Source: Bdellovibrionota bacterium | GTDB taxonomy: Bacteria; Bdellovibrionota; UBA1018 | Length of the DNA: 48,451 nucleotides | NCBI GenBank assembly: GCA_035291325.1 | Contig: DATDSK010000036.1 | Location: 1-48,451 of the forward strand | Reading direction: 5' to 3' | Shown here: positions 17,357 to 43,558 of the stretch, piece after piece | Position numbering within the stretch: the first letter of the stretch is position 1 | How the letters are laid out: each line of letters begins with the position of its first letter | Notes under the pieces: model-generated | Database searches by the model: none | What the model was told of the DNA's origin: nothing | Seen by the model: the letters and a program-made list of their open reading frames with translations, nothing else | Made by a program: the position numbers and the translations under genes

Positions 17357-18984
17357 GCCGTCCCCCCCACGCCGTTTAACTTTGTAGCAAGGTTCCGAAA
17401 CCCGGTATGGTTGTCATCGAAAGCCCCCTGGATCTGCGATAACATGATACCGTTCAAATTGCGCTGAATCTCACTGATGTCCGCGAACGAAAAGCCCTGA
17501 TCCAGCATATACGCCAAAAACCAAAGGCTGGTGTCAGGATCAATAAAAACGCTGTTCTTAATTTCACTAAAAGCCGCGATCTTATGTTCGTAAGCACGCC
17601 TTGAGTCCATCGTGCGATGACTCCATTTGTTCCCCGCCCCGGCGAGACCAAATGCGTCCCGCTGTTCGTGAACAGGCGTGTTTTCGGAATAATAAAATTC
17701 CTTAAGAGAATAGAACTCAACTCCCGTGGAGTTAACAAAATCAATGTTAGATAAAACCGTCTCGTCCGTTTCACCTGGAAATCCCAACACGAAAGCGGCG
17801 AGCGACACGATACCATTATTCCTGAGGTGCCCAACTCCCCGGCGAAACGCGTCCCCGTTGGCGCGTTTATTCATGCTCTTCAGAACGGAATCGTTGGCCG
17901 ACTCGATTCCAAGATAAACGCAGCTACAACCAGAATCCTTCATCAAAGCGGCTGTCTCAGCATCGACATATTGAACACGCAAAAAAGAGGACCATTCAAA
18001 ATCGAACTTTGAAAGTAACCTGCAGATACTTCGAAAGCGCTCAGCCGGAACATTAAAAGTATCGTCCAAGAACACCAAACGACGCACGCCTGGAATTCTC
18101 GATATGCTTATCAGGTGTTTTTCGAGGACATCCAAGGACATCGTGTGCAAGCCCTTGCTTAATCGAGGGTAAGAGCAAAACGCACACGAGAAGGCGCACC
18201 CGGAAGCGCTCCTTAGCTGGAGCGTGGACCGGACAAAGGAGGTTAAATCGAGACGATCCCAATCGGCTGGCGCATCATCAAGCACGGGATCGTTCCAGCG
18301 GGTAACTGTTTTTTGAATTTGGGCGCTATCGTTTATCTTTTCACGGAAAAACAAATTATTCACTTCGGAAAGCGAGGCACCAGCATGCTTGCGAGCCAGA
18401 ACCAAATCGCGGAGGTCCGACTCGGAATTGAAGCTGTGAATGGCGTAATCGAGTCCCAATCTCAACATAGCCCGTTCCAAAGCCGCCGAATCATCCGACT
18501 TTACCTGTGCATTGACGAAAGCGCCGCCGATTACGATAGAAGCATCAGGGAACCGAGACTTGATTTTTTTGCTGATACGACCGACTTCCGAATAGTTCAG
18601 GTGAAACGTGCAGGATATGCCAATGAGCGGCGGCATGGAGGAGCGCTCATACATTTCGCAGAACAGATCCCACTCGGCGTCAAAATTATTAATGATGCCA
18701 GTTCCAATCCCGAACTGCCTCAAATAATTGGCAAGATGAACGCCTACAAAGCCCGGCAGGTTCCAGATATTTAAAAGCTCCCTCCTTTGGACAAAGTCGG
18801 CCTCATTCCAAAACACCCCTCGGCGAATCTTGTTCAGGACATCCAGATGCGAACGGAACCCGCCCTGGTAGTGGATCATCCTCGGATAAATCAGTTCAGA
18901 ACAAAGCGACAACCGGTCAAGCGGTATCTTAGAATACTCAGCATAGTTGACTACGTCAGACTGGGAAATGACGATCAAATCCAT
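17353..18984 (-). CDS. B12-binding-domain radical SAM enzyme (class B-like)
   Basis: 543 aa. The N-terminal ~200 aa are Rossmann-like (IGISCTFHLNYSEVGRISKKIKSRFPDASIVIGGAF). This is followed by RSASGCAFSCAFCSYP (CxxxCxxC), VFLDDTFN and YLGIESAND. Confidence 0.8.
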   Translation of the reverse strand: MDLIVISQSDVVNYAEYSKIPLDRLSLCSELIYPRMIHYQGGFRSHLDVLNKIRRGVFWNEADFVQRRELLNIWNLPGFVGVHLANYLRQFGIGTGIINNFDAEWDLFCEMYERSSMPPLIGISCTFHLNYSEVGRISKKIKSRFPDASIVIGGAFVNAQVKSDDSAALERAMLRLGLDYAIHSFNSESDLRDLVLARKHAGASLSEVNNLFFREKINDSAQIQKTVTRWNDPVLDDAPADWDRLDLTSFVRSTLQLRSASGCAFSCAFCSYPRLSKGLHTMSLDVLEKHLISISRIPGVRRLVFLDDTFNVPAERFRSICRLLSKFDFEWSSFLRVQYVDAETAALMKDSGCSCVYLGIESANDSVLKSMNKRANGDAFRRGVGHLRNNGIVSLAAFVLGFPGETDETVLSNIDFVNSTGVEFYSLKEFYYSENTPVHEQRDAFGLAGAGNKWSHRTMDSRRAYEHKIAAFSEIKNSVFIDPDTSLWFLAYMLDQGFSFADISEIQRNLNGIMLSQIQGAFDDNHTGFRNLATKLNGVGGTA

Positions 18985-19513: not shown

Positions 19514-20491
19514 TTAGAAATCCCTTGGAAAGTTGTGAGGGTACTTGGCTTTGAGTTCAGACGGCAAAAGAGCAGTTTCGAGGCCTTCAATTGCCGCTCG
19601 CCCCATCGTCAGTACGGCTTGTTCTGTACTTCCCCCCATATGGCAGCTGCCGAGAAAGGTTCCGCTAGAAAACAACGAACACACTCCTGGCGGCTCTTCG
19701 CTAAAAACATCAAGAGCGGCACCGGCCAAATGGCCTGTTTCCAACATACTCGAAAGGGCAGTTTCGTCGATCAACCCCCCTCGGGCCGCATTAACCAATA
19801 GCGCGCCTTTTTTCATAAGGGACAATTTCGAAGCACTCAGCAAGTTACGGGTCGACGAATCGAAAGGAAGATGAATAGTAACAATGTCAGAGCGTCTGAG
19901 TAGGTCATCCAATGAAACAGGAGTCACCCCATAAAGGGAGTAGAAATCAGAATAATCGACGATATCAAATGCGAGTAGACGACAGCCGAATTTCTCGAGC
20001 AGAAGAGCAACTTCTTTACCAACATGCCCGCAACCGACGATACCGACAGTCAAGTCGCTGAGCTGACGGCCTCGAAGCTGACCCCATTTCCCTTTAAGCA
20101 GTCCGCAATGTGCCTCCGGCACCCGATGCGATAGCATGATCATGAAACCAACGGCAAGCTCGGCCACTGACCGGCGGTTTACCCCAGGCATCCAACCGAG
20201 CTTTACGCGACGTTCTTCCAAAGCACGCAAGTCAATCATGTCGAGCCCGACACCATATTTCGAAATCAAGCGAAGCCCGGGCAGCTGCTCGAGAACATCC
20301 GCACGAATCTCCTCCAGTCCCGTGATCGCGCGATCGCATCCCTTAAGAAAATTCACCAGGTCAGCACCAGAAAGAGACTTACCTAGGTCGTTAAAGCGGA
20401 TATTCGAGTATCGCGCAAGCAACTCCGCTTTCAAAACGGGGTGTTGGGAAAACGACCGTGACGCAACTCCGATTCTGATGTTGTCGCTCAT
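19514..20491 (-). CDS. D-isomer-specific 2-hydroxyacid dehydrogenase (SerA/GhrA-like), NAD-binding
   Basis: GIVGCGHVGKEVALLLEKFGCRLLAFD, NAARGGLIDETAL and CHMGGST. The track start at 20527 is GTG. The ATG at 20491 has GGAGGG 9 nt upstream and overlaps the upstream stop (ATGA). Confidence 0.8.
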   Translation of the reverse strand: MSDNIRIGVASRSFSQHPVLKAELLARYSNIRFNDLGKSLSGADLVNFLKGCDRAITGLEEIRADVLEQLPGLRLISKYGVGLDMIDLRALEERRVKLGWMPGVNRRSVAELAVGFMIMLSHRVPEAHCGLLKGKWGQLRGRQLSDLTVGIVGCGHVGKEVALLLEKFGCRLLAFDIVDYSDFYSLYGVTPVSLDDLLRRSDIVTIHLPFDSSTRNLLSASKLSLMKKGALLVNAARGGLIDETALSSMLETGHLAGAALDVFSEEPPGVCSLFSSGTFLGSCHMGGSTEQAVLTMGRAAIEGLETALLPSELKAKYPHNFPRDF

Positions 20492-21570
20492 TTTTTCAGG
20501 CCCTCCAGGTACTCGGTACAAGCACACTGAAACGCTTTATCCGGCTTGAGCCATTTCTTTTCAAATTTCCAACCACCAACCGGGATAATGACCCCAAGCC
20601 CCTGTTCGCTGTTTTTCTTATCGCTGCCGATTCCTGAAAGAAATTTCTCGGGGCAGATCGCCACATCTTTACTCATTTTGTAATTCTCGAATAATGTCGC
20701 GTGGCATTTGTCAAAAACGCGGCCCTTCTCAAACCCCAGACGAGCAGAAACCCAGTTCGCCATGTCCATGCCCATCGAAACGGCCACGCCATGTGGAATG
20801 GCAAATCCGGAGGAGCTCTCAATGGCATGTCCAAAACTATGACCGTAGTTCAAAAGGTTTCTTTGTCCCGTATCAAACTCATCCGCTTCGATGTAACTCT
20901 TCTTTAAGTTCAGGGACAACAGGATGAATCGCTGTAATAAAGGTCCTGAAGCAGTCAAAGCCTTGTAAGATGCCGCGATTTTTTCGAATTCTGACTCACC
21001 CTCGAGCGCGCAGATCTTAAGGATTTCGCCGAGACCGCTCCGGATCTCAGCTTCCTCGAGGGTCTTGAGAAACATCGGGTTAATGACGACCTCGGTCGGC
21101 GGATAATAACCGCCGACGATGTTCTTTATGCCACCAAAATTGATGGAGCTCTTCGATCCAATACAGGAATCTGCCTGCGCGAGCAGGGTTGTCGGATAAT
21201 AATTCCACTCAATACCTCTCATCAGAATGGAAGAAACAAAACAGGAAATATCCTGAATCACCCCGCCGCCGATGGAGAGTATCCTGTTCCCTCTCTTGAT
21301 GCGTTTTTCTAGTAGCTTCGCGACGTAATTAACGCAATTCTGAAGGGTTTTATTCCCCTCGTTTGCTTGAATGATAAGTACCGAATCATTTTCGAGAGTT
21401 TTCTTGAGCTGATCTCGATAAATTTCGGCAACTTTGGAATCGATGATAACGTGAAATCGTATTTTCCCCTGAAAAACCGACTCGGGGCTTTCATCCTGGT
21501 CAATTCTCACCCGGTAATCACCGCGATAAGACCTTACGAGAAATTGCTCAGACACGAGAAAATCCGCCAT
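20488..21570 (-). CDS. 3-dehydroquinate-synthase-like enzyme (sugar phosphate cyclase superfamily)
   Basis: ILSIGGGVIQDISCFV, YPTTLLAQADSCIGSKSSINF, RSGLGEILK and LLNYGHSFGHAIE (the DHQS LNxGHTxGHAxE metal motif), plus IPHGVAVSMGM. Confidence 0.75.
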   Translation of the reverse strand: MADFLVSEQFLVRSYRGDYRVRIDQDESPESVFQGKIRFHVIIDSKVAEIYRDQLKKTLENDSVLIIQANEGNKTLQNCVNYVAKLLEKRIKRGNRILSIGGGVIQDISCFVSSILMRGIEWNYYPTTLLAQADSCIGSKSSINFGGIKNIVGGYYPPTEVVINPMFLKTLEEAEIRSGLGEILKICALEGESEFEKIAASYKALTASGPLLQRFILLSLNLKKSYIEADEFDTGQRNLLNYGHSFGHAIESSSGFAIPHGVAVSMGMDMANWVSARLGFEKGRVFDKCHATLFENYKMSKDVAICPEKFLSGIGSDKKNSEQGLGVIIPVGGWKFEKKWLKPDKAFQCACTEYLEGLKK

Positions 21571-22333
21571 CAATCGCTACGCACTGCCCAGTTAGAAACG
21601 AGTTCTGTTCGCTCACCAACCAGGCAACAAGCTCCGCGATCTCCTCCGGTTTGGCGAGTCGACGAGACGGCACACCGGCTACCATTGTTTTAATCCCAGC
21701 GTCGCCGAGAACCCTTCGCGTAAGCTCCGTATCCACGAATCCAGGAGCCACGGTGTTCGCCAGAATACCGAACTGCGCGTATTCTGCAGAAAGCGCGACA
21801 GTCATGCCGTCGAGGCCGAACTTACTCGCGGAATAGGCCGCGCGGCGCTCCTTGCTGATTTTGCCGAAAATGGATCCTACGTTCACAATGCGACCCCAGC
21901 CACGTTCGCGCATGCCGGGCAGGACGGCCTTACACAGCTCAAATGGACCCATGAGATTGACCCGCAGGACGCGTTCAAAGTCATCACTGGGCAAAGACTC
22001 AAAAGACTCGACCCGATTAATCCCGGCATTGTTGACCAGAATGTCTATTTTCAAATCGAGGATTCCGGTCAAGAAGGCGGCAACTGAGCCTTTATCTAAA
22101 AAATCGAGTTGTAAATAACGCGTGACGGGACAGCCGTCGGCTTGCGCCGCGGTGCCGGTTGCAATCACCTCGGCCCCCCTGTCCATCAGCTCGCGGGCTA
22201 TGGCCAACCCGATCCCCCGAGTCGCTCCCGTTACAAGTGCTACACGCCCCACTAATTGACGTTCGTTTTTATGTGCTTGCACGTTTATTCGATTTTCCAG
22301 CTGGTTTAAGTGCTCGGAATATAGTGTGGCCAT
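21548..22333 (-). CDS. Short-chain dehydrogenase/reductase (FabG-like ketoreductase)
   Basis: GRVALVTGATRGIGLAIA, NNAGI and YSASKFGLDGM (YxxxK). The track start at 22384 is TTG; the first ATG is at 22333. A GTG at 22282 is also possible. Confidence 0.8.
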   Translation of the reverse strand: MATLYSEHLNQLENRINVQAHKNERQLVGRVALVTGATRGIGLAIARELMDRGAEVIATGTAAQADGCPVTRYLQLDFLDKGSVAAFLTGILDLKIDILVNNAGINRVESFESLPSDDFERVLRVNLMGPFELCKAVLPGMRERGWGRIVNVGSIFGKISKERRAAYSASKFGLDGMTVALSAEYAQFGILANTVAPGFVDTELTRRVLGDAGIKTMVAGVPSRRLAKPEEIAELVAWLVSEQNSFLTGQCVAIDGGFSRV

Positions 22334-22409
22334 CCGGCTTTGTCTAGCGGGTTCTTCCCGAGTGATTCCTGGAATTGGCGGCAATAACTTGCTATTCAGT
22401 TATCGAGCA
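22334..22409. promoter_or_regulatory. Divergent intergenic region: start of the ~15 kb minus-strand operon and of wzx
   Basis: Inferred from the divergent starts at 22333 (minus) and 22410 (plus). No confident -35/-10 hexamers. Confidence 0.35.
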
Positions 22410-26613: not shown

Positions 26614-27882
26614 CTATCCGATTCTGTAATCGCCGAGGCCGAGCTTTTGCCTGAGTTCATAATAAAACCGCGTAATCGGGTCTGGCCTTAACAGCGACTC
26701 CCTTTTTGCAATACCATACGTAAACTGATCTTTGTTAACGAGGTTCAAAAAATCTTCCACGACTTTCGATAGGGAATGATTCGCCTTGAAATATGCCAAA
26801 GCCTTGAACGAGAGGGCATCATAGTCTTCATTAAGCTTCGAAAGGATGCTGTCCAAGGAACGATTCCCGGGCTCATAGGATTCAGAAGAAATCATTCGGC
26901 CCAGGCAATACTGACCTGATTGACCAAGCATCCTGAATATATAACCCTCCTGGACATGCGCGTAACTGACATCCAATAAAACCACGGGAATACCGAGCCT
27001 TGCGCCCTCAAGCGCCGACGTCCCCATCGCAAAAAGCAGGTCGATGTTCTTCAACAAAATATCTTCTAGATCATGGACTGGCAAATCGCCATAAAAACGG
27101 ATTTCAAATTCCGGGCTACGAATCTCTTTCTCAAGACGCTCCAGCTCTGTTCGAAATTGACCGTCTCCGACTAAATGAAACAGAACCCGTTTTTGAGTCA
27201 GGCGAGCCCAGTCGGCGAGCTTGCGAATGGTGTAAGAAAGGATCGGGGCTTTGAAATCGGCGAGTCGCCCGACCCATCCGAGATTCAAGACCTCCGCAGA
27301 GCTGGCGGTCTTCGTTTTCACGGGATCCAAAGCAGGAACCGGCAAAAAGCGTCCGTCAGAAAGATTGACCCCGTTCGCCTGGGACGTGGCGTTCAGGTTT
27401 TCGTCATCCATGAAAACCAAGCCGCCTCGTTCGGAAGCGACAGATGCGAGCCGCGCCAACTTGGCACGCTTTAATGCAAGAAAAGGAAAAAGAATCGATC
27501 GCCTCAGAACTTTTCGAGTCCTCGACCCAGCCGCCACCCAGGCCATCGCCGGAACAAGATTGCATGGGTGCAAATTCCACAAAAAAAGCGGGGTTTCATG
27601 CCGGAATACGAGTTCTTCGGGTAAACGCCAAAGGGGGGCAGATTGCATGACGAACGTGGCGTTTTGGGGAATGTGAAGAGGAACCGACTTCTGTAAATAA
27701 AGTTTTCGGACCGGCGTTGATTTGAGCAACTCCGAAAGATGACCATCTGGAAAATCAATGATGGAAATATCATGACCACGCCGCGCCAAGACAGTTGCCA
27801 GCCTTGCGAACAAGACGGAGACCCCTCCCACTCCGCGGAAGGGGAAAAAAAAGCAGATCCCTTGCTTGGACGTTTCTTTCAT
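26614..27882 (-). CDS. GT-B fold glycosyltransferase (GT4-like)
   Basis: The N-terminus ICFFFPFRGVGGVSVLFARLATVLARRGHDISII and the C-terminus LLFAMGTSALEGARLGIPVVLLD fit the fold. The ATG overlaps the upstream stop (ATGA). Confidence 0.65.
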   Translation of the reverse strand: MKETSKQGICFFFPFRGVGGVSVLFARLATVLARRGHDISIIDFPDGHLSELLKSTPVRKLYLQKSVPLHIPQNATFVMQSAPLWRLPEELVFRHETPLFLWNLHPCNLVPAMAWVAAGSRTRKVLRRSILFPFLALKRAKLARLASVASERGGLVFMDDENLNATSQANGVNLSDGRFLPVPALDPVKTKTASSAEVLNLGWVGRLADFKAPILSYTIRKLADWARLTQKRVLFHLVGDGQFRTELERLEKEIRSPEFEIRFYGDLPVHDLEDILLKNIDLLFAMGTSALEGARLGIPVVLLDVSYAHVQEGYIFRMLGQSGQYCLGRMISSESYEPGNRSLDSILSKLNEDYDALSFKALAYFKANHSLSKVVEDFLNLVNKDQFTYGIAKRESLLRPDPITRFYYELRQKLGLGDYRIG

Positions 27883-28892
27883 AATCCTGGGTAACAGTAC
27901 TCCGGTAATTCCCGCCCGATCCGCTCGATTTCCGATTGCCTCTCGAATTGCTTGAAAATACCAACGAATCTGGAAGACTCCTCGGGCTTGAAATGCGTCT
28001 TTTTGCGAATATGAATCGACGGTTTTTCCCCCAGAAAATGCAAAATCCTTTGAATCGTTGCTTCGTAAGCGAAAATAAGATCCTCGTATCTGAGCCTAAG
28101 AACCCGATCGTCGGCAACGGCTGCCACAGAGGATTTCTTCCGAAGGAGCCGATAGCGCTTTATGAACGACTCGACAGAATGTGCAGCTGTGATTTTACGA
28201 TACCGGGCGGAATGTGTGACACTGGCGACATAGTTATCCCGAGGATCGCGATCAACAATGATCGATTTTGCATGCTTGAAGTAACCCAGACCCTTTGCTG
28301 GATTAAAAGGCTCGATCGCATTATGGAGTACGAAGGCCCTCGTGTCCTCTGACGCTATCGATGAAAATAGCTTTTCCAGGAACGATTGTGTTTTGAAAAG
28401 AAAGTCTTCACCAGAGGCAAGGTAGAGTTTCGATTCAAAAGCCCCCCTTAGCCCGAGCTTCTGCCTCACTTTATTGCTGAAGAGCTCCCACCCGCTGTAG
28501 TCATTCCAAGCAAACGGCCAAAAAGCGTCCCACTCGAGATCAACCAGACCGGCCATATACTTTTGTGCGAGGCAAGAAAACTGCCCTTTAAACTGCCCAT
28601 CATAATCGTATCCAAGCTTAAATCGGGTGGGTTTCCGACCGAGAATTCTGACCAGCCGCTCAAAGCGGCGAAACGCTGCTGGACAACGAATGGGCGACCA
28701 GTCGCCGTTGATCGCATTATCGAGATCCATAATCCCGTCCTGAACGCGAATCAAACAGAACTCGAACTCGAAATGAGGGACCTGATAACCCTCGAATTCA
28801 CGGACAAGTTCGATCACGGCGTGCTTGCCGGAAAACAAAAAGCCCGACAGATCTAGAAATGACAGTTCGCGATTCAAAGACGCGCGCCCCAT
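27879..28892 (-). CDS. Putative PAPS-dependent sulfotransferase
   Basis: It has a possible 5'-PSB-like loop SGFLFSGKHAV and a 3'-PB-like IIVDRDPRDNYVAS. The C-terminal LRLRYEDLIFAYEATIQRILHFLG matches the YEDLv...FLG tail common in bacterial sulfotransferases. Assigned by motif resemblance only. Confidence 0.55.
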   Translation of the reverse strand: MGRASLNRELSFLDLSGFLFSGKHAVIELVREFEGYQVPHFEFEFCLIRVQDGIMDLDNAINGDWSPIRCPAAFRRFERLVRILGRKPTRFKLGYDYDGQFKGQFSCLAQKYMAGLVDLEWDAFWPFAWNDYSGWELFSNKVRQKLGLRGAFESKLYLASGEDFLFKTQSFLEKLFSSIASEDTRAFVLHNAIEPFNPAKGLGYFKHAKSIIVDRDPRDNYVASVTHSARYRKITAAHSVESFIKRYRLLRKKSSVAAVADDRVLRLRYEDLIFAYEATIQRILHFLGEKPSIHIRKKTHFKPEESSRFVGIFKQFERQSEIERIGRELPEYCYPGL

Positions 28893-29108: not shown

Positions 29109-29879
29109 ATGATCCACCCCACTTTAAAGCAGAAGTTTAACTCACGCGCCGTGAGCATTGGCTCTTGGGTAACCCTCAATGATGAGTCGATTCCCGAGAT
29201 CATGGCCTCGGCAGGTTTCGAATGGCTTGTAATAGACCTGGAGCATTCAGCGATCGGGATTAGAAATGCCGCGAGACTGATCCGGGTCATCGATCTGCTT
29301 GGCATTTCACCGCTCGTCCGCGTCACGTCCAACGATCCCCATCAAATAAAGCGAGTCATGGACGCGGGAGCCCATGGAATCATAGTCCCGATGATTAATA
29401 GCGCCCAAGACGCCCGAGAAGCGGTTTCGGCTGTCCGGTACCCCCCTCAAGGTGGCCGAGGAGTCGGCCTTGCACGAGCCCAGGGCTTCGGAACTTCTTT
29501 TAAGAAGTACCGCGATTCGATTCATCAGTGCGCCGTTGTCATCGTTCAGATCGAACATGTGGATGCCATCGCCAATCTCGAAGCAATTCTCGACGTCGAT
29601 GGTGTAGATGGAACGATAATCGGCCCCTACGACCTTTCGGGATCAGTGGGAAAACCAGGCGAGTTCGAAGATCCCGAAGTTCGAGCGCTCCTGTCCCGTT
29701 ACGAAGACGTCTGCAAACGCAAAAACAAACCTCTTGGATTTCATGTCGTCGAAACCGATTCCGCCTTAATCAAATCGAAACTCAAGGCCGGATACTCGAT
29801 CCTGGCATTCGGGACAGATTTCCTTTTTCTCGGAAATGCCTGCCGTAACCAAATGAAGGAGCTCAGAACACAAAAATGA
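29109..29879 (+). CDS. HpcH/HpaI-family class II (pyruvate) aldolase
   Basis: SIGSWVTLNDESIPEIMASAGFEWLVIDLEHSAIG...PLVRVTSNDPHQIKRVMDAGAHGIIVPMINSAQDAREAVSAVRYPPQGGRG...VQIEH is the family pattern. Confidence 0.8.
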   Translation: MIHPTLKQKFNSRAVSIGSWVTLNDESIPEIMASAGFEWLVIDLEHSAIGIRNAARLIRVIDLLGISPLVRVTSNDPHQIKRVMDAGAHGIIVPMINSAQDAREAVSAVRYPPQGGRGVGLARAQGFGTSFKKYRDSIHQCAVVIVQIEHVDAIANLEAILDVDGVDGTIIGPYDLSGSVGKPGEFEDPEVRALLSRYEDVCKRKNKPLGFHVVETDSALIKSKLKAGYSILAFGTDFLFLGNACRNQMKELRTQK

Positions 29880-30667
29880 TTGTCGCCGTGATTCCCGCTC
29901 GAATGTCCTCTTCGCGGTTCCCCGGTAAACCCATGGCTCTGATCCGGGGCATCCCGATGGTCGGCCATGTTCTGCATCGCACCTCTTTCTGTTCGGCATT
30001 CGACGATATTTGGGTCGCGACTTGCGACCCGGTCATTGATGATTATGTTAAATCAATCGGAGGAAAATCAGTTTTAACGGGGAATCATCACGAACGCGCG
30101 TCGGAACGCGTGACCGAGGCCGTTGAAAAGATCGAGGCAAAAACAAACTACAAAATAGACCACGTCGCCATGATCCAAGGCGATGAACCACTCGTTATGC
30201 CTGAAATGCTGGAAGAACTCGTTCAACCCGCCCTCGCCGGCGATTCAGCCGCAGTGATCAACCTTATCCAGAAGATCTCCTCTGACGAGGAGTTCCTGTC
30301 CCCCGACATTGTAAAGCTGGTGAGAAAGCCCTCGGGAGAGGTCATTTATTTTTCGAGAGAACCGATTCCATCAAAAAAGAAGTACAAAGAGCAATATAAG
30401 CGCTGGAAACAGCTCGGGCTTATTCTTTTCAGGCGCGACGCGCTCTTCGATTTCATCAAACTGCAACCGACCCCCCTTGAAATCATCGAGTCCGTCGACA
30501 TGAATCGATTCATTGAACACGGGAGAGTAATCAAGACTGTCGAGACCGTATTCCAGACGTATTCCGTAGACACCCCGAAGGATCTTCAGAATGTTGAAAT
30601 GCATTTCGAAAGGGACCCCTGGTTCACCCGTTATCAGAAAGTAACAGGTCTCAATGAAGGAAAGTGA
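29876..30667 (+). CDS. KdsB/NeuA-family cytidylyltransferase (CMP-ulosonic acid synthetase-like)
   Basis: MIVAVIPARMSSSRFPGKPMALIRGIPMV matches the IPARxxSxRxPGKPL signature. MIQGDEPL is present. The ATG overlaps the aldolase stop (ATGA). Confidence 0.8.
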   Translation: MIVAVIPARMSSSRFPGKPMALIRGIPMVGHVLHRTSFCSAFDDIWVATCDPVIDDYVKSIGGKSVLTGNHHERASERVTEAVEKIEAKTNYKIDHVAMIQGDEPLVMPEMLEELVQPALAGDSAAVINLIQKISSDEEFLSPDIVKLVRKPSGEVIYFSREPIPSKKKYKEQYKRWKQLGLILFRRDALFDFIKLQPTPLEIIESVDMNRFIEHGRVIKTVETVFQTYSVDTPKDLQNVEMHFERDPWFTRYQKVTGLNEGK

Positions 30668-31640
30668 AATCAGAAACGAACAGGCTCACCGGCGATACCT
30701 TGAGCTTGCGCGCGAGGACGCCATGAGAATTTTCCACGACAAGGGGAAATTCCTCGCGCGGCCGTGTCCTGCCTGCGGCTCCGAGAAGAGCCGTAATGAA
30801 TTCGCGAAAGATGATTTCAGATACGTATCCTGCACCGAATGCAAAACTCTCTTTGTCTCGCCACAGCCGCCTTACGAAATGCTTGCTGAGCTGTATGATG
30901 ATTCTGAATCCACACGTTTTTGGGTCGACGAGTTCTTCACCCCCCAAGCGGAAAATCGGCGGGTAAAAATCTTCAGACCGAGGGCCACATACATTGCCAA
31001 GCGTCTGCCGGACCTTTCCAGAGGAAAGGTCGCCGACATTGGAGCCGGATTTGGCCTCTTCGGCGAAGAGCTTCGGGCATTTTGGCCAGAAAGCGAATTC
31101 CACGCGATTGAACCGTCTCGAAAAATGGCGGAGATCTGCGAGAAAAAAAACTTTCGCGTGATCAGGAGCATGCTAGAGGACATTCACCCCTCCGAGCACA
31201 GCTTTGACCTGCTCACGTCTTTCGAGCTGCTCGAGCACCTCCACGACCCGCTCACCTTCCTTACAAAAGCAGCCCGATTACTGAAGGAAAACGGATGGAT
31301 TTTTCTTACCACACTAAATGGAATGGGTTTTGATATCCAGACCCTCTGGAACAAATCCAGGTCCGTCATGCCGCCACACCATCTCAACTTTCTTAACACA
31401 GATTCAGTCACGATCCTTCTCAGACGCGCCGGACTGGAATCGGTCGAAGTCTCCACGCCTGGAAAACTGGATGTTGAGATCGTTCGAAATTCCGCACCGC
31501 ACGAGGACTCAGACGTCGGCAGATTTTTCTCATACGTTATGAAAAATCGTTCTGAATCCTGTCATGCTGAATTTCAGGGTTGGCTTCAAAAGCACTTACT
31601 CAGTTCACACATGTGGGTTCTGGCGAGAAAAAGGAACTGA
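30654..31640 (+). CDS. SAM-dependent methyltransferase with N-terminal Cys4 zinc-ribbon
   Basis: CPACGS...x17...CTECKTLF is followed by motif I VADIGAGFGLFG and FDLLTSFELLEHL. Confidence 0.75.
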   Translation: MKESEIRNEQAHRRYLELAREDAMRIFHDKGKFLARPCPACGSEKSRNEFAKDDFRYVSCTECKTLFVSPQPPYEMLAELYDDSESTRFWVDEFFTPQAENRRVKIFRPRATYIAKRLPDLSRGKVADIGAGFGLFGEELRAFWPESEFHAIEPSRKMAEICEKKNFRVIRSMLEDIHPSEHSFDLLTSFELLEHLHDPLTFLTKAARLLKENGWIFLTTLNGMGFDIQTLWNKSRSVMPPHHLNFLNTDSVTILLRRAGLESVEVSTPGKLDVEIVRNSAPHEDSDVGRFFSYVMKNRSESCHAEFQGWLQKHLLSSHMWVLARKRN

Positions 31641-31642
31641 AG

Positions 31643-32683
31643 ATGAGCAGCAAGCAATATCGAGTCGGCATAGCTGGTTACGGAGTCGTAGGAAAGCGAA
31701 GAAGAGCTTTCATTGACCAAAACCCCAATTTCAAGACAGTCGCGATCAGCGACGTCACATTCAAGGCGGACGAGAGATCTGCCGATGGAGTCGAGATCAG
31801 GCGACATTACGAAAGCCTCTTTGAACAGGAATTGGACGTCCTGTTTGTCTGTCTGCCCAATTTCGTGGCGGCCGATGCAACCATTAACGCGCTTCGAAAA
31901 GGATTACACGTTTTCTGCGAGAAACCCCCGGGGAGAAACCTCAAGGACATTCAGGACGTCATCGAGGTCGAAAAATTGTACCCGGACCTAAAGTTGAAGT
32001 ACGGCTTCAATCATCGCTATCACTACTCGGTGTTGAAAGCGAAAGAGATCATCGATTCAGGCACATTCGGCCCCATTGTTAATCTTCGCGGAGTTTACGG
32101 TAAGAGCGCAATTATTCCCGACCACGGTGGCTGGCGTTCAGAGCGGAAGTATGCGGGCGGAGGCATTCTGCTCGATCAGGGCATCCATATGCTCGACATG
32201 ATTCGCCTGTTCGCCGGCGACTTCGATGAAATCAAAAGCTTCGTATCAAACGCTTACTGGAACCACGACGTCGAAGATAACGCCTATGCATTGCTTCGAA
32301 ACAGCTCGAACGGATGCATTGCCATGCTCCATTCCACGGCCACCCAGTGGCAGCACCGCTTCCGCCTCGAAATCACGTTGCGCGAAGCTCTCCTGGAACT
32401 GACCGGTATCCTCTCAGGCTCCAAAAGCTACGGCGAAGAGAAACTCGCAATCATTCCGCGGAAAGGCGGCTCGATCAACGGCTCCTTTCAGGCAACGCAC
32501 GAATCGTACCTGGAGGATCATTCCTGGCGAGATGAAGTCAACGAATTTGCTAATCTTGTTGTGGAAAACAAGAAAGTCATTAACGGAAACAGCCAAGAAG
32601 CATTAAAGGTGATGGAGCTGGTACAGCAGATCTATCTGGCCGATAACGAATGGCAAAAGAAATTTGACCTGAACAGCAGATAA
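31643..32683 (+). CDS. Gfo/Idh/MocA-family NAD(P)-dependent sugar oxidoreductase
   Basis: YRVGIAGYGVVGKRR, VFCEKPP and GGGILLDQGIHMLD. The start is trimmed to the ATG at 31643, 2 nt after the upstream stop. Confidence 0.8.
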   Translation: MSSKQYRVGIAGYGVVGKRRRAFIDQNPNFKTVAISDVTFKADERSADGVEIRRHYESLFEQELDVLFVCLPNFVAADATINALRKGLHVFCEKPPGRNLKDIQDVIEVEKLYPDLKLKYGFNHRYHYSVLKAKEIIDSGTFGPIVNLRGVYGKSAIIPDHGGWRSERKYAGGGILLDQGIHMLDMIRLFAGDFDEIKSFVSNAYWNHDVEDNAYALLRNSSNGCIAMLHSTATQWQHRFRLEITLREALLELTGILSGSKSYGEEKLAIIPRKGGSINGSFQATHESYLEDHSWRDEVNEFANLVVENKKVINGNSQEALKVMELVQQIYLADNEWQKKFDLNSR

Positions 32684-32691
32684 GGAAATTT

Positions 32692-33315
32692 ATGAACCAA
32701 CTTGAAAAATTCATCTCCCAATCGAAGTCCATCAGCCAGTTCGCCGCTGAATATATCGATTATTTGAATTTCGTCCTGAAAACAGTCGACATGAAATCGC
32801 TCGACGCGTTGGCGGCTGAGCTGCTTCTTGCAAGAGAGCGGGGGAATACTGTTTTCATCATCGGAAACGGCGGTTCCGCGTCAACCGCGACAACGATGGC
32901 CAATGATCTTGGCTTTGACGTCATAAAGAAATCGGGCTGCGACCTCCCGTTCAGGATTTTTTCTTTGACCGACAACAATGCAGCCATGACGGCCATTGGA
33001 AACGACGTCGGATACGAAAACCTTTTCGTTTCACAACTCGCCATTCATTACAGACCCGGCGACATGCTTTTAGCGATTTCGGCCAGCGGGAACTCGGCGA
33101 ACATCCTCGTAGCGGCCGACTGGATGAAGAAGAGAGGTGGCAAGGTCCTCTCTTTCGTAGGATTTTCTGGTGGCATGCTCAAGGAAATCAGCGATGTCTC
33201 CGTCCATGTGAAATGCGAGAAAGGTGAGTTCGGACCGGTCGAAGACGCGCATCTCGCGCTCAACCACATCCTTGCCCATTGGTTTCAAGTAATCCTGAGA
33301 GGTTCCAGGAATTAG
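32692..33315 (+). CDS. SIS-domain sugar-phosphate isomerase, GmhA-like
   Basis: 207 aa. VFIIGNGGSASTATTMANDL and LLAISASGNSANI are present. Confidence 0.8.
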   Translation: MNQLEKFISQSKSISQFAAEYIDYLNFVLKTVDMKSLDALAAELLLARERGNTVFIIGNGGSASTATTMANDLGFDVIKKSGCDLPFRIFSLTDNNAAMTAIGNDVGYENLFVSQLAIHYRPGDMLLAISASGNSANILVAADWMKKRGGKVLSFVGFSGGMLKEISDVSVHVKCEKGEFGPVEDAHLALNHILAHWFQVILRGSRN

Positions 33316-33327: not shown

Positions 33328-34446
33328 ATGATCGTGGGGATCAACGCCCTTTCCGCCAGAGCCGGTGGGGGAAGAGTCTATCTTCAAAACCTCGTACGAT
33401 CGTTAAGTGAAGTCCGGCCCAACTGGACCATCGACGTCGTCCTTCGATCGGCAGACCAGCTTTCGGATTGGCCGAAAGCCAATAATTTGCGTTACTCATC
33501 TTGTCCGGCAAATTCCCCGTTGCTGAGAGTTCTTTTTGAAGGCATCTTTCTTTTCTGCCATGCACACAGGAACGGTTGGGACATCGGCATTTTCCCGAAT
33601 GGCGTGATCCCAATCCTGTTCCGAAAAGCAAAAACCGCCATTATCATCCAAAACCAGCTAATTTGGGATCGGCGCTCTGTACGGGATTTCAAAGGAGGAT
33701 ATCAACGGCTTCGTCACTTCCTATTGAGAAGATCGTGCATCTGCTCGATTCAACGGGCGGATAAGATTATCTACGTTTCGAATTTCATTAAGGCCGAAGC
33801 CGAAAAAGCTGCCAATCCCAAGACAGCCAGACGGTCGGCTGTAATCTACCTCGGTCTTGAGAAACGATTAGAAGAAAAAGCGCCCCCCCAGGCCCCCAAT
33901 GGCCGTTTTGTATTCTATCCCTCCCCTATTTTTCCGTATAAAAGGCAGCTGACCGTTCTAGACAGTTTTACACGGTACATCAAAAATTCGAATGATCCTG
34001 AATTATTTCTCGTTTTCGGAGGAGGAATCGGAGATCGGTCTTATTTTAGAAAGGTCTTGGCCCAAATCACTAAGGATAATCTCCAGGAAAGAGTTCTCTT
34101 CGTGGGCGATCTGAAAAAGGAGGAAATGCAATGGCTTTTGAAGCGGGCTGAGAAAATCGTTTTCGCGTCAGTTTGTGAAAGCATTTCCCTGATCGTCCTT
34201 GAGGCAATCGCAAGCGGACGGCCATTTCTTTGCTCCTCGCGCAGTCCGATGCCAGAAATAGCTGGTCCTGCTGCCAGCTATTTTGACCCGGATTCGCCAG
34301 AAGAACTCTGCCAACTTCTATCGGGCAAGCCTCTGCTTATTAGCGAAAAAACCCGAACAGAAGTATTGAGCAAATTTTCCTGGACGAAGAACGCCATTGA
34401 AACGGCTCATTTGATAGAGCCAGAACTCGAGACGCAAGAATGCTGA
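33328..34446 (+). CDS. Glycosyltransferase, GT4
   Basis: VFGGGIG...VLFVGDL...IVFASVCESISLIVLEAIASGRPFLCSS. AGGAG RBS at 33314-33318. Confidence 0.8.
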   Translation: MIVGINALSARAGGGRVYLQNLVRSLSEVRPNWTIDVVLRSADQLSDWPKANNLRYSSCPANSPLLRVLFEGIFLFCHAHRNGWDIGIFPNGVIPILFRKAKTAIIIQNQLIWDRRSVRDFKGGYQRLRHFLLRRSCICSIQRADKIIYVSNFIKAEAEKAANPKTARRSAVIYLGLEKRLEEKAPPQAPNGRFVFYPSPIFPYKRQLTVLDSFTRYIKNSNDPELFLVFGGGIGDRSYFRKVLAQITKDNLQERVLFVGDLKKEEMQWLLKRAEKIVFASVCESISLIVLEAIASGRPFLCSSRSPMPEIAGPAASYFDPDSPEELCQLLSGKPLLISEKTRTEVLSKFSWTKNAIETAHLIEPELETQEC

Positions 34447-35624
34447 ATGCATGCTGCGTCGTACCTCTTTTATTGACTCTTACGGCTCTCTTCTATCTAT
34501 CTGCCCTGAAGCAGCTTCTACAGGACCGTCTATTATATTCGACGGTCGCAGTCGCTGTTTTGGACGCGTCTTACTCATGGGTTACTCACCAGACGCTTTT
34601 TTCTATTCAGGATATTTATTTTTATTTTTTCATCACAAGCTACATCGCTTTCAGACACATAAAAAAGGACCACCTGCGAACCTGTTTCATCTTTTTTTCA
34701 CTTGCTTCGGTTTTGGTTTACATGGCAGAAATGTCCCTCGGGATCGCCTCGAACACTCATCGCGCAGCGATGGGCAGTTATCATGCGCTCTCGGATTTTC
34801 TTGTTACACGCGAAGGACTGATATCCGGGACATCTCACCTTACAAGAACGTTACCGATTTTGGGCGGAATTTCTCTCATTCGCCCGGTCGGGCTACTTGG
34901 AAATGTACATTTCGGGTCGTTCGCGCTCATTCCTTTCTTTCTTTTTCTTACTCTTTACAACCGCTCAAACTTTTCCAAAATCGTCATCAGCAGTCTGATA
35001 CTTTTAGGCGGGACAATTCAAACCATTTTCGCTTTTTCAATTTTCGCGGTAATCAGTCATTTGAACAAAAAGCGTCTGGCCATAGGATTCGGCGTGGCCT
35101 CCCTGTTCGGATTTGCAAGCCTAATCGCTTTAGTTTACTTCGCAACAAGCCTGCCAGTGCACAACGACATGTACATGCTCTATCAGGAGGCTTTTGCAGC
35201 CGCTGGTCGGACGCGTTTCCTTGATCTGTTCTTTGGCGTGCCTTGGAGAGTGGTTATAGAGAATCTGCGCCCGATGAATTCAGCGGTATCCCTTAATTTG
35301 GGCGAAGCAGGCCTTCTTCGATATACTGCGGAACTCGGCCTCCTGAAACTGGCATTTGCTCCTTGGATCGTATTGAACTCTCAGAGTTCGCGGCTCTGGC
35401 TCATGCGCCTTGCGTTTCTTCTCGCTCTCTATTCCACATTGTCGCACTATTTCGTTCTGACGACCTTATTCGGCGCTTTTATTTCGGCGGTCGGGTTGGC
35501 GCTTCTCGATCTCGAATCCCAAGATAACCAGGTAGCTCGCCAAAAATGTGAAAATCAAAATAATGACAGAACCACCAATCAGACCAGCACCGGTTTGCGA
35601 AAAGGATATTCTGCAGTCTTCTGA
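34440..35624 (+). CDS. Second Wzy-like polytopic membrane protein (putative polymerase)
   Basis: 394 aa with about 10 hydrophobic segments and no soluble domain. It lies directly after a GT4 with a 7-nt overlap. The last ~45 codons are hydrophilic and overlap a convergent ORF, so the true 3' end is uncertain. Confidence 0.5.
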   Translation: MLNACCVVPLLLTLTALFYLSALKQLLQDRLLYSTVAVAVLDASYSWVTHQTLFSIQDIYFYFFITSYIAFRHIKKDHLRTCFIFFSLASVLVYMAEMSLGIASNTHRAAMGSYHALSDFLVTREGLISGTSHLTRTLPILGGISLIRPVGLLGNVHFGSFALIPFFLFLTLYNRSNFSKIVISSLILLGGTIQTIFAFSIFAVISHLNKKRLAIGFGVASLFGFASLIALVYFATSLPVHNDMYMLYQEAFAAAGRTRFLDLFFGVPWRVVIENLRPMNSAVSLNLGEAGLLRYTAELGLLKLAFAPWIVLNSQSSRLWLMRLAFLLALYSTLSHYFVLTTLFGAFISAVGLALLDLESQDNQVARQKCENQNNDRTTNQTSTGLRKGYSAVF

Positions 35625-42188: not shown

Positions 42189-42228
42189 TAAGAGTCATAG
42201 CTAAAGACGAGAGAAATGCGGAGAAGCA

Positions 42229-42678
42229 ATGATAGGTGATATCCAGGTGTTCGAGGGCGGATTGGCGGTTGACGATCGGGGGACTGTTTCCTTCGTCAAT
42301 GGTTTTGACTTCACTCAGGTAAAGCGATTTTACAAAATAGAGAATTTTTCAAAAAACGTCGTCCGGGCATTTCACGGGCACCTTAAAGAAGGAAAATATG
42401 TTTTTGTCGTAAGCGGCAGCATTATTTTCGCGGCCGTTCCGATGACCGATACAAAAACGCCTGACAAGAATGCCAAAGTTCAACGCTTCGTGCTCTCCTC
42501 GAGAAAGCCTTCGATAGTTTATATCCCCCCTGGGTACGCGAACGGCTTTAGGATTCTGGAGGAGAACAGCCAAATTATATTCTTCTCGACCTCGACTCTC
42601 GAACAATCCAAAGGGGATGATTACCGCTTTCCAGCGGATTATTGGGGACAACAGGTTTGGGAGGTAGAAAACCGATGA
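42229..42678 (+). CDS. RmlC-like cupin (sugar-nucleotide epimerase/isomerase, CapF C-terminal-domain-like)
   Basis: 149 aa. DDRGTVSFVNGFDFTQVKRFYKIENFSKNVVRAFHGHLKEGKYVFVVSGS and YIPPGYANGF are present. GGAGAAG RBS upstream. Confidence 0.6.
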   Translation: MIGDIQVFEGGLAVDDRGTVSFVNGFDFTQVKRFYKIENFSKNVVRAFHGHLKEGKYVFVVSGSIIFAAVPMTDTKTPDKNAKVQRFVLSSRKPSIVYIPPGYANGFRILEENSQIIFFSTSTLEQSKGDDYRFPADYWGQQVWEVENR

Positions 42679-43538: not shown

Positions 43539-43558
43539 AACGGCGTCACGCGTGGCTC

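Follow-up and report, generated by a model that had tools for sequence, protein, structure and literature searches.

E. coli group 2 capsule loci carry KpsF plus KpsU, and kps loci are a precedent for a SIS protein plus KdsB without KdsA. Among the pyruvate aldolases that act reversibly on sugar acids, HpaI, GarL and YfaU/RhmA are of class II and NanA and Kdo aldolase of class I, and chemists already make CMP-sialic acids in one-pot syntheses with an aldolase and a CMP synthetase. The same chemistry, in which pyruvate and an aldehyde give a 4-hydroxy-2-keto acid, is proposed here for a gene cassette in a polysaccharide locus from a groundwater bacterium not yet in culture. The locus lies in a stretch of 48,451 nucleotides (the window).

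With the CMP-Kdo pathway (KdsD, KdsA, KdsC, KdsB; KpsF/KpsU) the cassette shares a SIS-fold sugar-phosphate isomerase, a KdsB-type cytidylyltransferase in which the two catalytic aspartates are present, phosphate removal and, as proposed here, a phosphorylated keto-acid intermediate. However, KdsA is replaced by a sequence-unrelated class II pyruvate aldolase, the isomerase resembles GmhA and has no CBS domains, KdsC has as its counterpart an AroB-like lyase plus an SDR (window) or a HAD-IA or IMPase enzyme (relatives), and a methyltransferase and two additional dehydrogenases belong to the conserved set. The nonulosonic acid pathways (NeuB/NeuA, Kdn-9-P synthase, Pse, Leg) would share the end point, a CMP-activated alpha-keto sugar acid, and have in common with sister cassettes a NeuA/PseF-like cytidylyltransferase, Maf/MptE-type transferases, a NanQ-like anomerase and O-methyl/O-acetyl tailoring. 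Their series of UDP-/GDP-HexNAc dehydratase, aminotransferase, acetyltransferase and hydrolase is not in the conserved core of the cassette, and neither the window nor 53 of the 61 related loci have NeuB, which is nearby in the other 8 (best 80 loci per scan).

The cassette aldolase shares its fold, metal ligands and catalytic Arg/His with HpaI and YfaU. Known HpaI/GarL/YfaU/RhmA-type aldolases are catabolic, whereas the cassette clade occurs in glycan-synthesis loci, adjoining cytidylyltransferases. DAHP synthase and 3-dehydroquinate synthase (DHQS), which begin the shikimate pathway, offer a further parallel. The cassette has an AroB-like enzyme with DHQS motifs, whose retention implies a 2-keto-acid 7-phosphate substrate, and a C3 + C4 condensation would supply such a compound. 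The cassette differs in that a class II aldolase would act on pyruvate where the shikimate pathway has DAHP synthase and PEP, in that its AroB-like enzyme belongs to a separate family, TIGR04425, and in its context of polysaccharide synthesis with a cytidylyltransferase.

An earlier note on this DNA described a module of five co-directional genes, and ORF positions and domain searches indicate that all are genuine, with matching coordinates and spacings. The five, all on the plus strand, encode an HpcH/HpaI class II pyruvate aldolase (29109..29879; Pfam PF03328 HpcH_HpaI, 1.2e-32), a KdsB-type CMP-ulosonate synthetase (29876..30667; PF02348 CTP_transf_3, 6.1e-43), a zinc-ribbon class I SAM methyltransferase (30654..31640; PF13489 Methyltransf_23, 1.5e-21), a Gfo/Idh/MocA NAD(P) oxidoreductase (31643..32683; PF01408 (GFO_IDH_MocA), PF22725, PF02894) and a single-domain, GmhA-like SIS sugar-phosphate isomerase (32692..33315; PF13580 SIS_2, 2.8e-13). 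The junctions are a 4-nt ATGA overlap of the aldolase gene end with the cytidylyltransferase gene start, a 14-nt overlap, a 2-nt gap that holds only if the Gfo gene starts at the ATG at 31643 (alternative starts are 31580 and 31613), and an 8-nt gap. The run continues on the same strand into a GT4 glycosyltransferase gene (33328..34446; Glycos_transf_1, 5.5e-14), 12 nt after the SIS gene, and then a membrane protein gene (34440-35624). The GT4 protein may be linked to the sugar acid. The claim that the window contains no NeuB/KdsA-type synthase is borne out: NeuB and DAHP_synth_1/KdsA Pfam domains were not found in the scanned window ORFs of at least 150 amino acids (49 submitted), and the window had no tblastn match to the NeuB-like sequences of related loci.

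For the aldolase we propose the role of an ulosonic-acid synthase that forms the C-C bond. It scores under the equivalog cut-offs of HpaI, GarL and RhmA, and its clade lies far below such cut-offs (190 versus 368, 165 versus 407, 151 versus 441). As judged by alignment, its catalytic residues are intact: H46, R71, E149 and D175 correspond to HpaI H45, R70, E149 and D175 and are invariant across 25 orthologues. R82, H150, Y174 and H212 are invariant in the clade and absent from HpaI. The cytidylyltransferase contains IPARMSSSRFPGKP and scores 261 bits against NCBIfam NF009905 (cut-off 255), by which it would be named 3-deoxy-manno-octulosonate cytidylyltransferase. Its nearest solved structure is E. 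coli KpsU (1GQ9, 139 bits); in the alignment with KpsU, D103 and D232 match D98 and D225, and both KdsB catalytic aspartates are conserved.

The methyltransferase, probably a tailoring enzyme for O- or C-methylation, has an N-terminal CxxC...CxxC zinc ribbon, although zinc-ribbon profile matches are weak, and in 14 of 28 KdsB-type loci (best 80 loci per scan) an orthologue at 40-52% identity comes after the KdsB-like gene. Gfo orthologues at 57-70% identity are present in related cassettes, and in most related loci the SIS gene adjoins the Gfo gene. The SIS protein scores 88.5 bits against TIGR00441 gmhA, under the cut-off of 209, and a domain search detected no CBS domains in it.

Although its genes stand, the five-gene module is too small, and half of the cassette had been missed. 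Three further genes, contiguous with these five in other genomes, lie in the window on the minus strand (19514-22384), about 6.7 kb from the five-gene run. They encode a classical SDR ketoreductase (21548..22384; adh_short, 6.5e-48; the gene as called on a sister contig would span 21548-22252), an AroB-related, DHQS-like sugar-phosphate phospholyase (20488..21573; TIGR04425, 418 bits, cut-off 400) and a PGDH-like D-2-hydroxyacid dehydrogenase (19514..20527; 2-Hacid_dh_C, 4.2e-46). The phospholyase, the proposed phosphate-eliminating enzyme, scores 254 bits against the aroB model, under its cut-off of 305, and AroB active-site motifs are kept in 14 family members. In dhqs-carrying related loci sdr always precedes dhqs, and the SDR is the probable partner of the AroB-like enzyme. 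The PGDH-like dehydrogenase has 3-phosphoglycerate dehydrogenases as its nearest solved structures (161 bits) and also matches PdxB and 2-ketogluconate reductase.

Two other minus-strand genes are recurrent accessories. A sulfotransferase gene (27879..28892; Sulfotransfer_3, 6.4e-09), divergent from the aldolase gene, has homologues in or beside the cassette at loci L006, L052 and L088. A B12-binding, PhpK-like radical SAM methyltransferase gene (17353..18984; TIGR04479, 384 bits, cut-off 600) belongs with a related cluster found in 12 of the 80 best aldolase loci, whose best window match is 17713-18657.

Conservation of the aldolase-cytidylyltransferase pairing was surveyed in both directions, using the best 80 loci per scan and crude ORF calls and clusters, and it is far above chance both ways. 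The aldolase-anchored survey covers 61 loci from Bacteria, CPR and Archaea that have no less than 3 kb of flanking sequence both ways and orthologues of 48–60% identity. Among these best loci, 56 of 61 hold a CTP_transf_3 gene no farther than 8 kb from the aldolase, the linked enzyme being KdsB-like in 28 loci and NeuA-like in 33, and a PGDH-like orthologue lies within 8 kb in 48 of 61, often adjoining; because this survey is anchored on the aldolase, it cannot demonstrate that the aldolase is indispensable. Four NeuB-bearing loci (L011, L012, L016, L045) have a second cytidylyltransferase near NeuB. With the cytidylyltransferase as anchor, the aldolase is within 2.5 kb in 27 of 37 assessable KdsB-like orthologues of at least 42% identity, but in only 2 of 23 canonical-type KdsB sequences of 35-41% identity (best 80 loci per scan in both cases). 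In the remaining 10 of the 37, about a quarter, no aldolase was found within that distance (best 80 loci per scan), and one such locus (L110) has a TPP enzyme nearby instead. Carriers include Dehalococcoidia, Saccharibacteria/Patescibacteria, Methanoregula, Methanoperedens, Woesearchaeota and Micrarchaeota, in which LPS is not expected.

Sister loci show which functions can be exchanged. Four of them (L006, L088, L108, L126) hold contiguous cassettes of 7-8 genes, uninterrupted and co-directional with the aldolase and cytidylyltransferase genes. In sister cassettes, a HAD or IMPase-type phosphatase takes the place of the phospholyase and SDR, and an NAD-epimerase-family enzyme that of Gfo (with or without SIS). 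Gfo (17 loci) and the NAD-epimerase-family enzyme (32 loci) share no locus, and the AroB-like enzyme and HAD phosphatase never occur together (0/11; both among the best 80 loci per scan). The three mutually exclusive options for removing phosphate (HAD, IMPase-like, AroB-like plus SDR) imply a phosphorylated intermediate. Some sister cassettes have MptE/Maf-type transferases or O-methyl and O-acetyl tailoring genes embedded in them, and flavobacterial loci have a YhcH/NanQ-like anomerase gene between the NeuA-like and aldolase genes. An Acuticoccus plasmid carries a self-contained operon of five generically named genes, in the order aldolase, acylneuraminate cytidylyltransferase, PGDH, HAD, NAD oxidoreductase.

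Gene content, conserved linkage, intact catalytic residues and alternative phosphate-removal modules are what was observed, and we infer from here on every chemical step, the step order and the identity of acceptor and product. On balance we lean towards the reading that this modular cassette is a NeuB/KdsA-independent aldolase route to a CMP-activated, methylated ulosonic acid via a phosphorylated, DAHP-like intermediate. The metal-dependent aldolase would add the enolate of pyruvate, or hydroxypyruvate from the PGDH-like dehydrogenase, to a phosphorylated aldose that either comes from central metabolism or is prepared by the SIS isomerase. The product would be a 2-keto(-3-deoxy) acid omega-phosphate, most likely a DAHP-like heptulosonate 7-phosphate because the partner enzyme is AroB-like. 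In the window version, the phospholyase would remove phosphate by NAD-dependent beta-elimination and the SDR would reduce the ketone left behind, so that the product would be omega-deoxy; in sister cassettes a plain HAD or IMPase phosphatase would act instead. Gfo and the 2-hydroxyacid dehydrogenase would then alter the oxidation state or the stereochemistry, and a methyl group would be added by the methyltransferase. The KdsB-like enzyme would join the beta-anomeric C2-OH to CMP, with PPi release from CTP pulling the reversible aldol reaction forward, and a glycosyltransferase of the locus would install the residue, which might also be sulfated.

The earlier proposal is supported in part. Its core, an HpcH aldolase functionally coupled to a KdsB/NeuA-type enzyme without NeuB/KdsA, gains strong support from gene neighbourhoods in both directions, and the intact residues and the sister-locus anomerase and Maf-type transferases also speak for it. 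Preparation of the aldehyde by SIS and Gfo is compatible with the data, but is one among several orders that are. The suggested Kdo/Kdn/Dha-like product cannot be narrowed to any of these three, and the AroB-like enzyme points to a heptulosonate-7-phosphate-type intermediate that had not been considered.

Two features fit this aldolase route poorly. AroB-type chemistry normally ends in carbocyclisation, which would give a quinate-like ring that is no obvious KdsB substrate. Also, the PGDH-like dehydrogenase and the Gfo/epimerase-family enzyme are reduced to unspecified tailoring, yet are among the most conserved members. Every non-aldolase enzyme would have a family-precedented role if the keto acid arose by oxidation rather than aldol condensation, an alternative that we regard as unlikely. 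Gfo-family aldose 1-dehydrogenases exist, and Gfo or the NAD-epimerase-family enzyme would oxidize an aldose phosphate at C1, starting from glucose 6-P or from heptose 7-P, which the SIS protein would form out of sedoheptulose 7-P. The lactone would be opened by 6PGL or a sister-locus "cyclase", and the PGDH/PdxB-like dehydrogenase would oxidize C2 to a 2-keto-aldonate phosphate, which, once stripped of its phosphate or acted on by the AroB-like enzyme, would be CMP-activated. Sister loci do encode a bona fide 6-phosphogluconolactonase (166 bits, cut-off 124), the lactonase is optional, as expected of a step that can run spontaneously, the dehydrogenase has the matches described above, and 2-keto-heptonate 7-P would suit the AroB-like active site. 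However, the aldolase, left to handle hydroxypyruvate or to remodel C3-C4 by retro-aldol and aldol steps, would have no necessary function, yet its catalytic residues are intact and no other member is coupled as tightly to the cytidylyltransferase, often through a stop-start codon overlap. Moreover, we know of KdsB/NeuA-family enzymes only for 3-deoxy-2-ulosonic acids, and at L052 the aldolase is surrounded by only SDR, AroB-like, KdsB-like and "cyclase" genes, with no Gfo, SIS or hadh gene detected.

Another alternative, which seems to us rather improbable, is that the minus-strand trio and Gfo/SIS form a separate C7-cyclitol (carbasugar) branch. The AroB-like enzyme would cyclize a heptulose or heptulosonate 7-phosphate, SDR and Gfo would tailor the ring into a polymer constituent or substituent, and the ulosonic acid would come from the aldolase, cytidylyltransferase and methyltransferase alone. 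TIGR04425 carries the annotation of a cyclising phospholyase, motifs for the whole DHQS reaction are kept, the top matches of Gfo are inositol dehydrogenases, and the halves are on opposite strands in the window. The four contiguous cassettes, on the other hand, have all genes in one co-directional array, and the AroB-like enzyme is clearly nearer to true DHQS (3CLH, 144 bits) than to the sedoheptulose-7-P cyclases; solved structures of DOIS, EEVS and DDGS score 96, 86 and 73 bits. AroB-like plus SDR also alternates with HAD/IMPase phosphatases within otherwise similar cassettes, and this mutual exclusivity suggests action on the same phosphorylated intermediate.

An ordinary CMP-Kdo supply, with a housekeeping KdsA elsewhere and the aldolase and its neighbours serving another sugar or catabolism, would suit the KpsU resemblance (a capsule-specific CMP-Kdo synthetase), the NCBIfam name and the kps precedent, but is very doubtful given a SIS protein unlike KpsF/KdsD with SIS plus CBS, an aldolase-linked KdsB-like group (42% identity or more) that differs in behaviour from the one at 35-41%, where the entire cassette is missing, an aldolase family that pairs equally often with NeuA-like enzymes, and carriers among Archaea, CPR bacteria and Dehalococcoidia, where Kdo for LPS is not expected.

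The cassette is widespread and apparently unstudied, as we found no paper describing it. In it, a pyruvate aldolase seems to replace the usual PEP-dependent synthase for a sialic-acid/Kdo-like sugar acid.

Five co-directional genes on the forward strand form a tightly packed run, with successive junctions of a 4-nt ATGA overlap, a 14-nt overlap, a 2-nt gap and an 8-nt gap. They encode an HpcH/HpaI class II aldolase (29109-29879; PF03328, 1.2e-32), a KdsB-type cytidylyltransferase with the motif IPARMSSSRFPGKP (29876-30667; CTP_transf_3, 6.1e-43), a class I SAM methyltransferase with an N-terminal CxxC...CxxC ribbon (30654-31640), a Gfo/Idh/MocA oxidoreductase (31643-32683, with alternative starts at 31580 and 31613) and a single-domain SIS protein (32692-33315). 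The best named relative of the SIS protein is GmhA (TIGR00441; 88.5 bits versus a cut-off of 209.45), and by this score it is a GmhA relative, not an equivalog. An earlier note had proposed from the sequence alone that such genes form an aldolase-based CMP-ulosonic-acid module without a PEP-dependent synthase, and ORF coordinates and Pfam/NCBIfam profiles agree with its description of the genes, motif and spacings. The absence of a NeuB or KdsA synthase from the window is likewise upheld: no domain match to NeuB (PF03102) or to the KdsA-type DAHP_synth_1 was found in the 49 window ORFs of at least 150 amino acids, scanned with Pfam, NCBIfam or both, and NeuB queries from related loci gave zero tblastn matches in the window.

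The surrounding window is a polysaccharide-assembly island that encodes Wzx- and MurJ-like flippases, a WecA-type initiating transferase, several GT2/GT4 enzymes, a Wzy_C-domain (O-antigen ligase/polymerase-like) protein, two DegT aminotransferases and a PglF-like dehydratase. G+C content in the island is 45-51% (about 11000-45000) versus 55-59% in the left flank (1-11000), and climbs again past ~45 kb, where a helix-turn-helix transposase-like ORF is found at 46217-46816. The G+C profile and this ORF are consistent with a horizontally exchanged polysaccharide locus. Sixteen metagenome contigs, several of them from groundwater samples, bear an identical aldolase protein. Promoter and terminator scans of 28.7-36.2 kb showed no excess of sites over shuffled sequence (7 versus 6.7 and 10 versus 9.1); one promoter-like site lies upstream of the aldolase gene, at 29012-39. 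Among the unannotated window ORFs, no member of the Kdo-transferase, sialyltransferase or MptE families was detected at E values up to 1.

The aldolase matches PF03328 with 113.5 bits (cut-off 25) over profile positions 2-215 of 221. Its residues H46, R71, E149 and D175 align with H45, R70, E149 and D175 of HpaI, and are invariant in 25 orthologues. From the HpaI literature, we take H45 and R70 to be the catalytic His and Arg, and E149 and D175 to be acidic metal ligands. That the protein is a catalytically competent member of the HpcH/HpaI family is a robust prediction from these alignments. Judged by NCBIfam equivalog cut-offs, it is outside every named catabolic subfamily tested, namely HpaI (190.6 versus 368.8), GarL (165.3 versus 406.75) and RhmA (150.9 versus 441). 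Its own clade is large and well conserved (48-63% identity). The clade keeps R82, H150, Y174 and H212 invariant, in place of Q, T, A and a hydrophobic L or I in HpaI; these four residues may determine a pocket for an anionic (phosphate) acceptor. A neighbor-joining tree and pairwise identities do not resolve partner type: aldolases linked to KdsB-like enzymes share 51% identity with those linked to NeuA-like enzymes, versus 54-56% within groups. Since the aldolases are not separable by partner, they give no clue to product size.

The cytidylyltransferase scores 147.6 bits against PF02348 and passes two KdsB subfamily cut-offs (NF009905, 261.1 versus 255; NF003952, 235 versus 193), from models that are themselves named by homology. 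KdsB-type enzymes have two conserved aspartates (PMC3149649); that paper does not list sugar-binding residues. D103, within QGDEP, and D232 align with D98 and D225 of KpsU and are invariant in 21 orthologues. The assignment of a KdsB-type enzyme that keeps both Mg-binding aspartates is a robust prediction, while genomic context argues for a substrate acid other than Kdo.

This context was surveyed from both partners. A pattern scan of a one-genome-per-species collection with the aldolase matched at least 600 stretches, at least 537 of which encode a relative. The best 80 loci were fetched and their neighbours mapped by tblastn and by clustering of crude ORF calls; these loci are distributed over many bacterial phyla, CPR bacteria and Archaea, and their carriers include Dehalococcoidia. 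Counts were taken over the 61 of these 80 loci in which the aldolase gene is flanked by 3 kb or more in both directions. A CTP_transf_3 gene is within 8 kb of the aldolase gene in 56 of the 61, often directly adjoining or overlapping it; KdsB-like enzymes, the type found in the window, occur in 28 loci and NeuA/PseF-like enzymes, the other type, in 33. NeuB is near the aldolase in only 8 of the 61, and in four of these (survey loci L011, L012, L016 and L045) a second cytidylyltransferase lies near NeuB. In the reverse survey, anchored on the KdsB-like protein, we took the best 80 loci of a scan of metagenome contigs, again with crude ORF calling and clustering. Among 37 assessable relatives with at least 42% identity, 27 have an aldolase gene within 2.5 kb, typically immediately upstream, whereas in the 35-41% identity group, which resembles ordinary KdsB, only 2 of 23 assessable members have one, and few have other cassette genes. 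The pairing of HpcH and CTP_transf_3 genes is therefore conserved from either anchor. The earlier note's coupling of aldolase and cytidylyltransferase is thus supported by linkage in both directions and by intact predicted catalytic residues, although it did not consider the DAHP-like intermediate to which the AroB-like enzyme described below points.

About a quarter of the KdsB-like orthologues with at least 42% identity have no nearby aldolase. In one survey locus (L110:6746-10759), an orthologue with 48% identity is ~1.6 kb downstream of a gene for a thiamine-diphosphate (acetolactate-synthase-like) enzyme; a Gfo-like oxidoreductase gene and a small ORF lie in the interval, and the search for an aldolase in the 20.7-kb locus found none. 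The thiamine-diphosphate enzyme may be an alternative way to the C-C bond. Another locus (L091:271-6900) has a KdsB-like gene and a zinc-ribbon methyltransferase gene, without an aldolase, beside genes for an HldE-like sugar kinase and a cytidylyltransferase/GmhB-like fusion, which links the methyltransferase-cytidylyltransferase pair to heptose metabolism. In a third (L095:7721-8350), a single ORF has an ABC-ATPase-like N-terminus followed by the C-terminal half of the aldolase (…IIGPYDLSASLGHPGE…). A radical SAM gene and an SDR gene separate this ORF, which is either the remnant of a rearrangement or a chimera of the assembly, from a KdsB-like gene ~1.6 kb downstream.

The five genes are real, but the module is larger than they are. 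Three reverse-strand genes of the window (19514-22384) travel with the aldolase/cytidylyltransferase pair and are contiguous with aldolase genes in other genomes. They encode a PGDH-like D-2-hydroxyacid dehydrogenase (19514-20527), which is present in 48 of the 61 aldolase loci, an AroB-like sugar-phosphate phospholyase (20488-21573) and a classical SDR (21548-22384) whose gene is always ahead of the phospholyase gene. In four survey loci (L006, L088, L108 and L126), the trio shares one uninterrupted array with the genes for aldolase, cytidylyltransferase, methyltransferase and Gfo; the SIS gene is included in all but one of these arrays. The AroB-like protein scores 418 against TIGR04425 (cut-off 400) and falls below the cut-off of the aroB model (254.5 versus 305). 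Among solved structures, it is nearest to true DHQS (144 bits, versus 96 for DOIS, 86 for EEVS and 73 for DDGS), and it and 13 relatives keep the motifs D..G.K, KN, GE, IKK, R...N.GH.FGH, HG and DKK, whose metal- and substrate-binding roles we presume from the DHQS literature. This proximity to DHQS, with the motif set including R...N.GH.FGH, points to a DAHP-like 2-keto-acid 7-phosphate as a candidate substrate.

The cassette appears to remove phosphate in several ways. AroB-like and SDR genes occur in 11 loci and a HAD-IA phosphatase in 33, never together; where Gfo and SIS genes are present but the AroB-like gene is not, an IMPase-like phosphatase is often found. Since the cassettes have three alternative solutions for phosphate removal, a phosphorylated intermediate on the pathway is a robust prediction. 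Gfo (17 loci) and an NAD-epimerase-family enzyme (32 loci) do not co-occur, and the placing of two NAD(P) enzymes among the core cassette members is also robust. A bona fide 6-phosphogluconolactonase or a "cyclase"-family hydrolase is an optional extra. In a cultured Acuticoccus sp., a plasmid (NZ_CP094833) carries, at 40686-45138, a five-gene operon of aldolase, acylneuraminate cytidylyltransferase, PGDH, HAD and NAD oxidoreductase genes, to which the NCBI pipeline annotation gives only generic names.

We somewhat favour a coarse model in which an aldolase-made sugar acid is CMP-activated by the KdsB-like enzyme. The aldolase would make a DAHP-like acid from an aldose phosphate and pyruvate, or in a variant hydroxypyruvate. 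In the window, phosphate would be lost by AroB-type elimination and the SDR would reduce the ketone to yield an omega-deoxy acid; in relatives, phosphate would be removed by simple hydrolysis. The Gfo, SIS and 2-hydroxyacid dehydrogenase proteins would prepare or tailor the sugar, and the methyltransferase would decorate the sugar acid. Matches of the methyltransferase and Gfo protein to solved structures are generic (UbiG-like; inositol dehydrogenase and DgpA) and do not fix regiochemistry. Formation of the CMP ester by the KdsB-like enzyme, with cleavage of CTP, would pull the reversible aldol reaction forward. In flavobacterial loci (L046, L053, L068, L071 and L080), a YhcH/NanQ-like protein (DUF386) of the N-acetylneuraminate anomerase family is encoded between the NeuA-like and aldolase genes, which fits a direct hand-over of the free keto acid. 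MptE/Maf-type transferases follow the cassette in many loci; two further loci, L069 and L070, are listed with the flavobacterial ones for these two observations.

A more specific version, which we consider doubtful, starts from a tetrose 4-phosphate and pyruvate. The resulting DAHP-like acid would pass through the AroB-like enzyme and SDR to an omega-deoxy heptulosonic or carbocyclic quinate-like acid that is methylated and CMP-activated, so that shikimate-type chemistry would have been recruited into glycan synthesis. We also considered that the dehydrogenase and a HAD enzyme simply make hydroxypyruvate from 3-PGA as the aldolase donor; as the dehydrogenase persists in cassettes without a phosphatase, this supply is kept only as a variant.

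The acid could instead arise by oxidation: Gfo or the epimerase-family enzyme, a lactonase and a PGDH/PdxB-like dehydrogenase would take an aldose phosphate through a lactone and an aldonate phosphate to a 2-keto-aldonate phosphate. Every non-aldolase enzyme then has a role with family precedent, but the aldolase, whose gene is the most tightly linked to the cytidylyltransferase, would be idle, and we regard this route as unlikely. It is rather less probable that the AroB-like, SDR and Gfo enzymes form a separate C7-cyclitol branch: TIGR04425 is annotated as cyclising, yet the AroB-like/SDR pair and the phosphatases exclude one another, and some genomes have the genes in contiguous operons. 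Ordinary CMP-Kdo supply in the manner of KpsF/KpsU is improbable even though KpsU is the closest structure to the KdsB-like enzyme, given that the 207-amino acid SIS protein has only an SIS_2 domain, with GmhA as its best NCBIfam match, and lacks the SIS plus tandem CBS architecture of KdsD/KpsF, that the aldolase-linked KdsB-like clade is distinct from canonical KdsB, that the same aldolase pairs equally with NeuA-like enzymes, and that some carrier lineages are not expected to make LPS. Synthesis of a hydroxy-acyl substituent by the aldolase and dehydrogenase was rejected, as the cassette conserves neither an acyl-activating enzyme nor a carrier protein.

Sister loci repeatedly carry genes for O-methyl and O-acetyl tailoring, for a sulfotransferase and for a B12 radical SAM methyltransferase. 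The sulfotransferase of the window (27879-28892, reverse strand) recurs in distant genomes at 33-44% identity within or beside the cassette (about +10 kb from the aldolase in L006, -1 kb in L052, and between the cytidylyltransferase and Gfo genes in L088), a hint of sulfation on the sugar acid or its neighbour. Directly downstream of the dehydrogenase gene, on the same reverse strand, is a MaoC-like dehydratase gene (19064-19513), followed by genes for a PhpK-like B12 radical SAM methyltransferase (17353-18984) of a type that recurs in 12 of the best 80 aldolase loci, an FkbH-domain protein (15488-17356) and a DltB-like MBOAT (13749-15224). By their predicted families, these genes (13749-19513) resemble a module that loads glyceryl/hydroxy-acyl groups and O-acylates the same polymer.

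CMP-activated ulosonic acids such as Kdo and sialic, pseudaminic and legionaminic acids are key surface determinants, and to our knowledge every route to them characterised so far relies on a PEP-dependent NeuB- or KdsA-type synthase. The cassette shares with the Kdo and nonulosonic-acid pathways a scheme of isomerase, condensation, dephosphorylation and CMP activation, but those pathways are defined by a KdsA- or NeuB-type synthase, and the cassette in the window has neither. In full-text literature outside subscription journals, we found no paper that ties HpcH/HpaI-type aldolases to CMP-sugar synthesis, and none on this cassette that connects HpcH/HpaI or class II aldolases, citrate-lyase-family annotation or TIGR04425 with polysaccharides, nonulosonic acids or cytidylyltransferases. 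The SugarBase preprint leaves aldolases unmentioned and reports, from mass spectrometry, new CMP-linked higher-carbon ulosonic acids, and the E. coli K3 glycan contains 4-deoxy-2-hexulosonic acid, as cited in PMC10433991. Since small or unusual ulosonic acids occur in glycans, unassigned products for the cassette pathway are plausible.

The cassette is widespread, unannotated and directly testable. Cultured carriers, including Maribacter, Aquimarina, Winogradskyella, Sulfurimonas and Acuticoccus, make the pathway accessible to experiment, the five-gene operon is compact enough for heterologous expression, and the enzymes could serve as biocatalysts for CMP-sugar acid synthesis with pyruvate as starting material. 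Acidic sugars made by an aldolase route are probably under-counted in genome surveys based on NeuB or KdsA. If true, this route would be a third, evolutionarily unrelated type of synthase, and the product of the tetrose-based, shikimate-type version would represent a class of CMP-activated sugar acid that has so far gone unrecognised, spread over Bacteria, CPR and Archaea.
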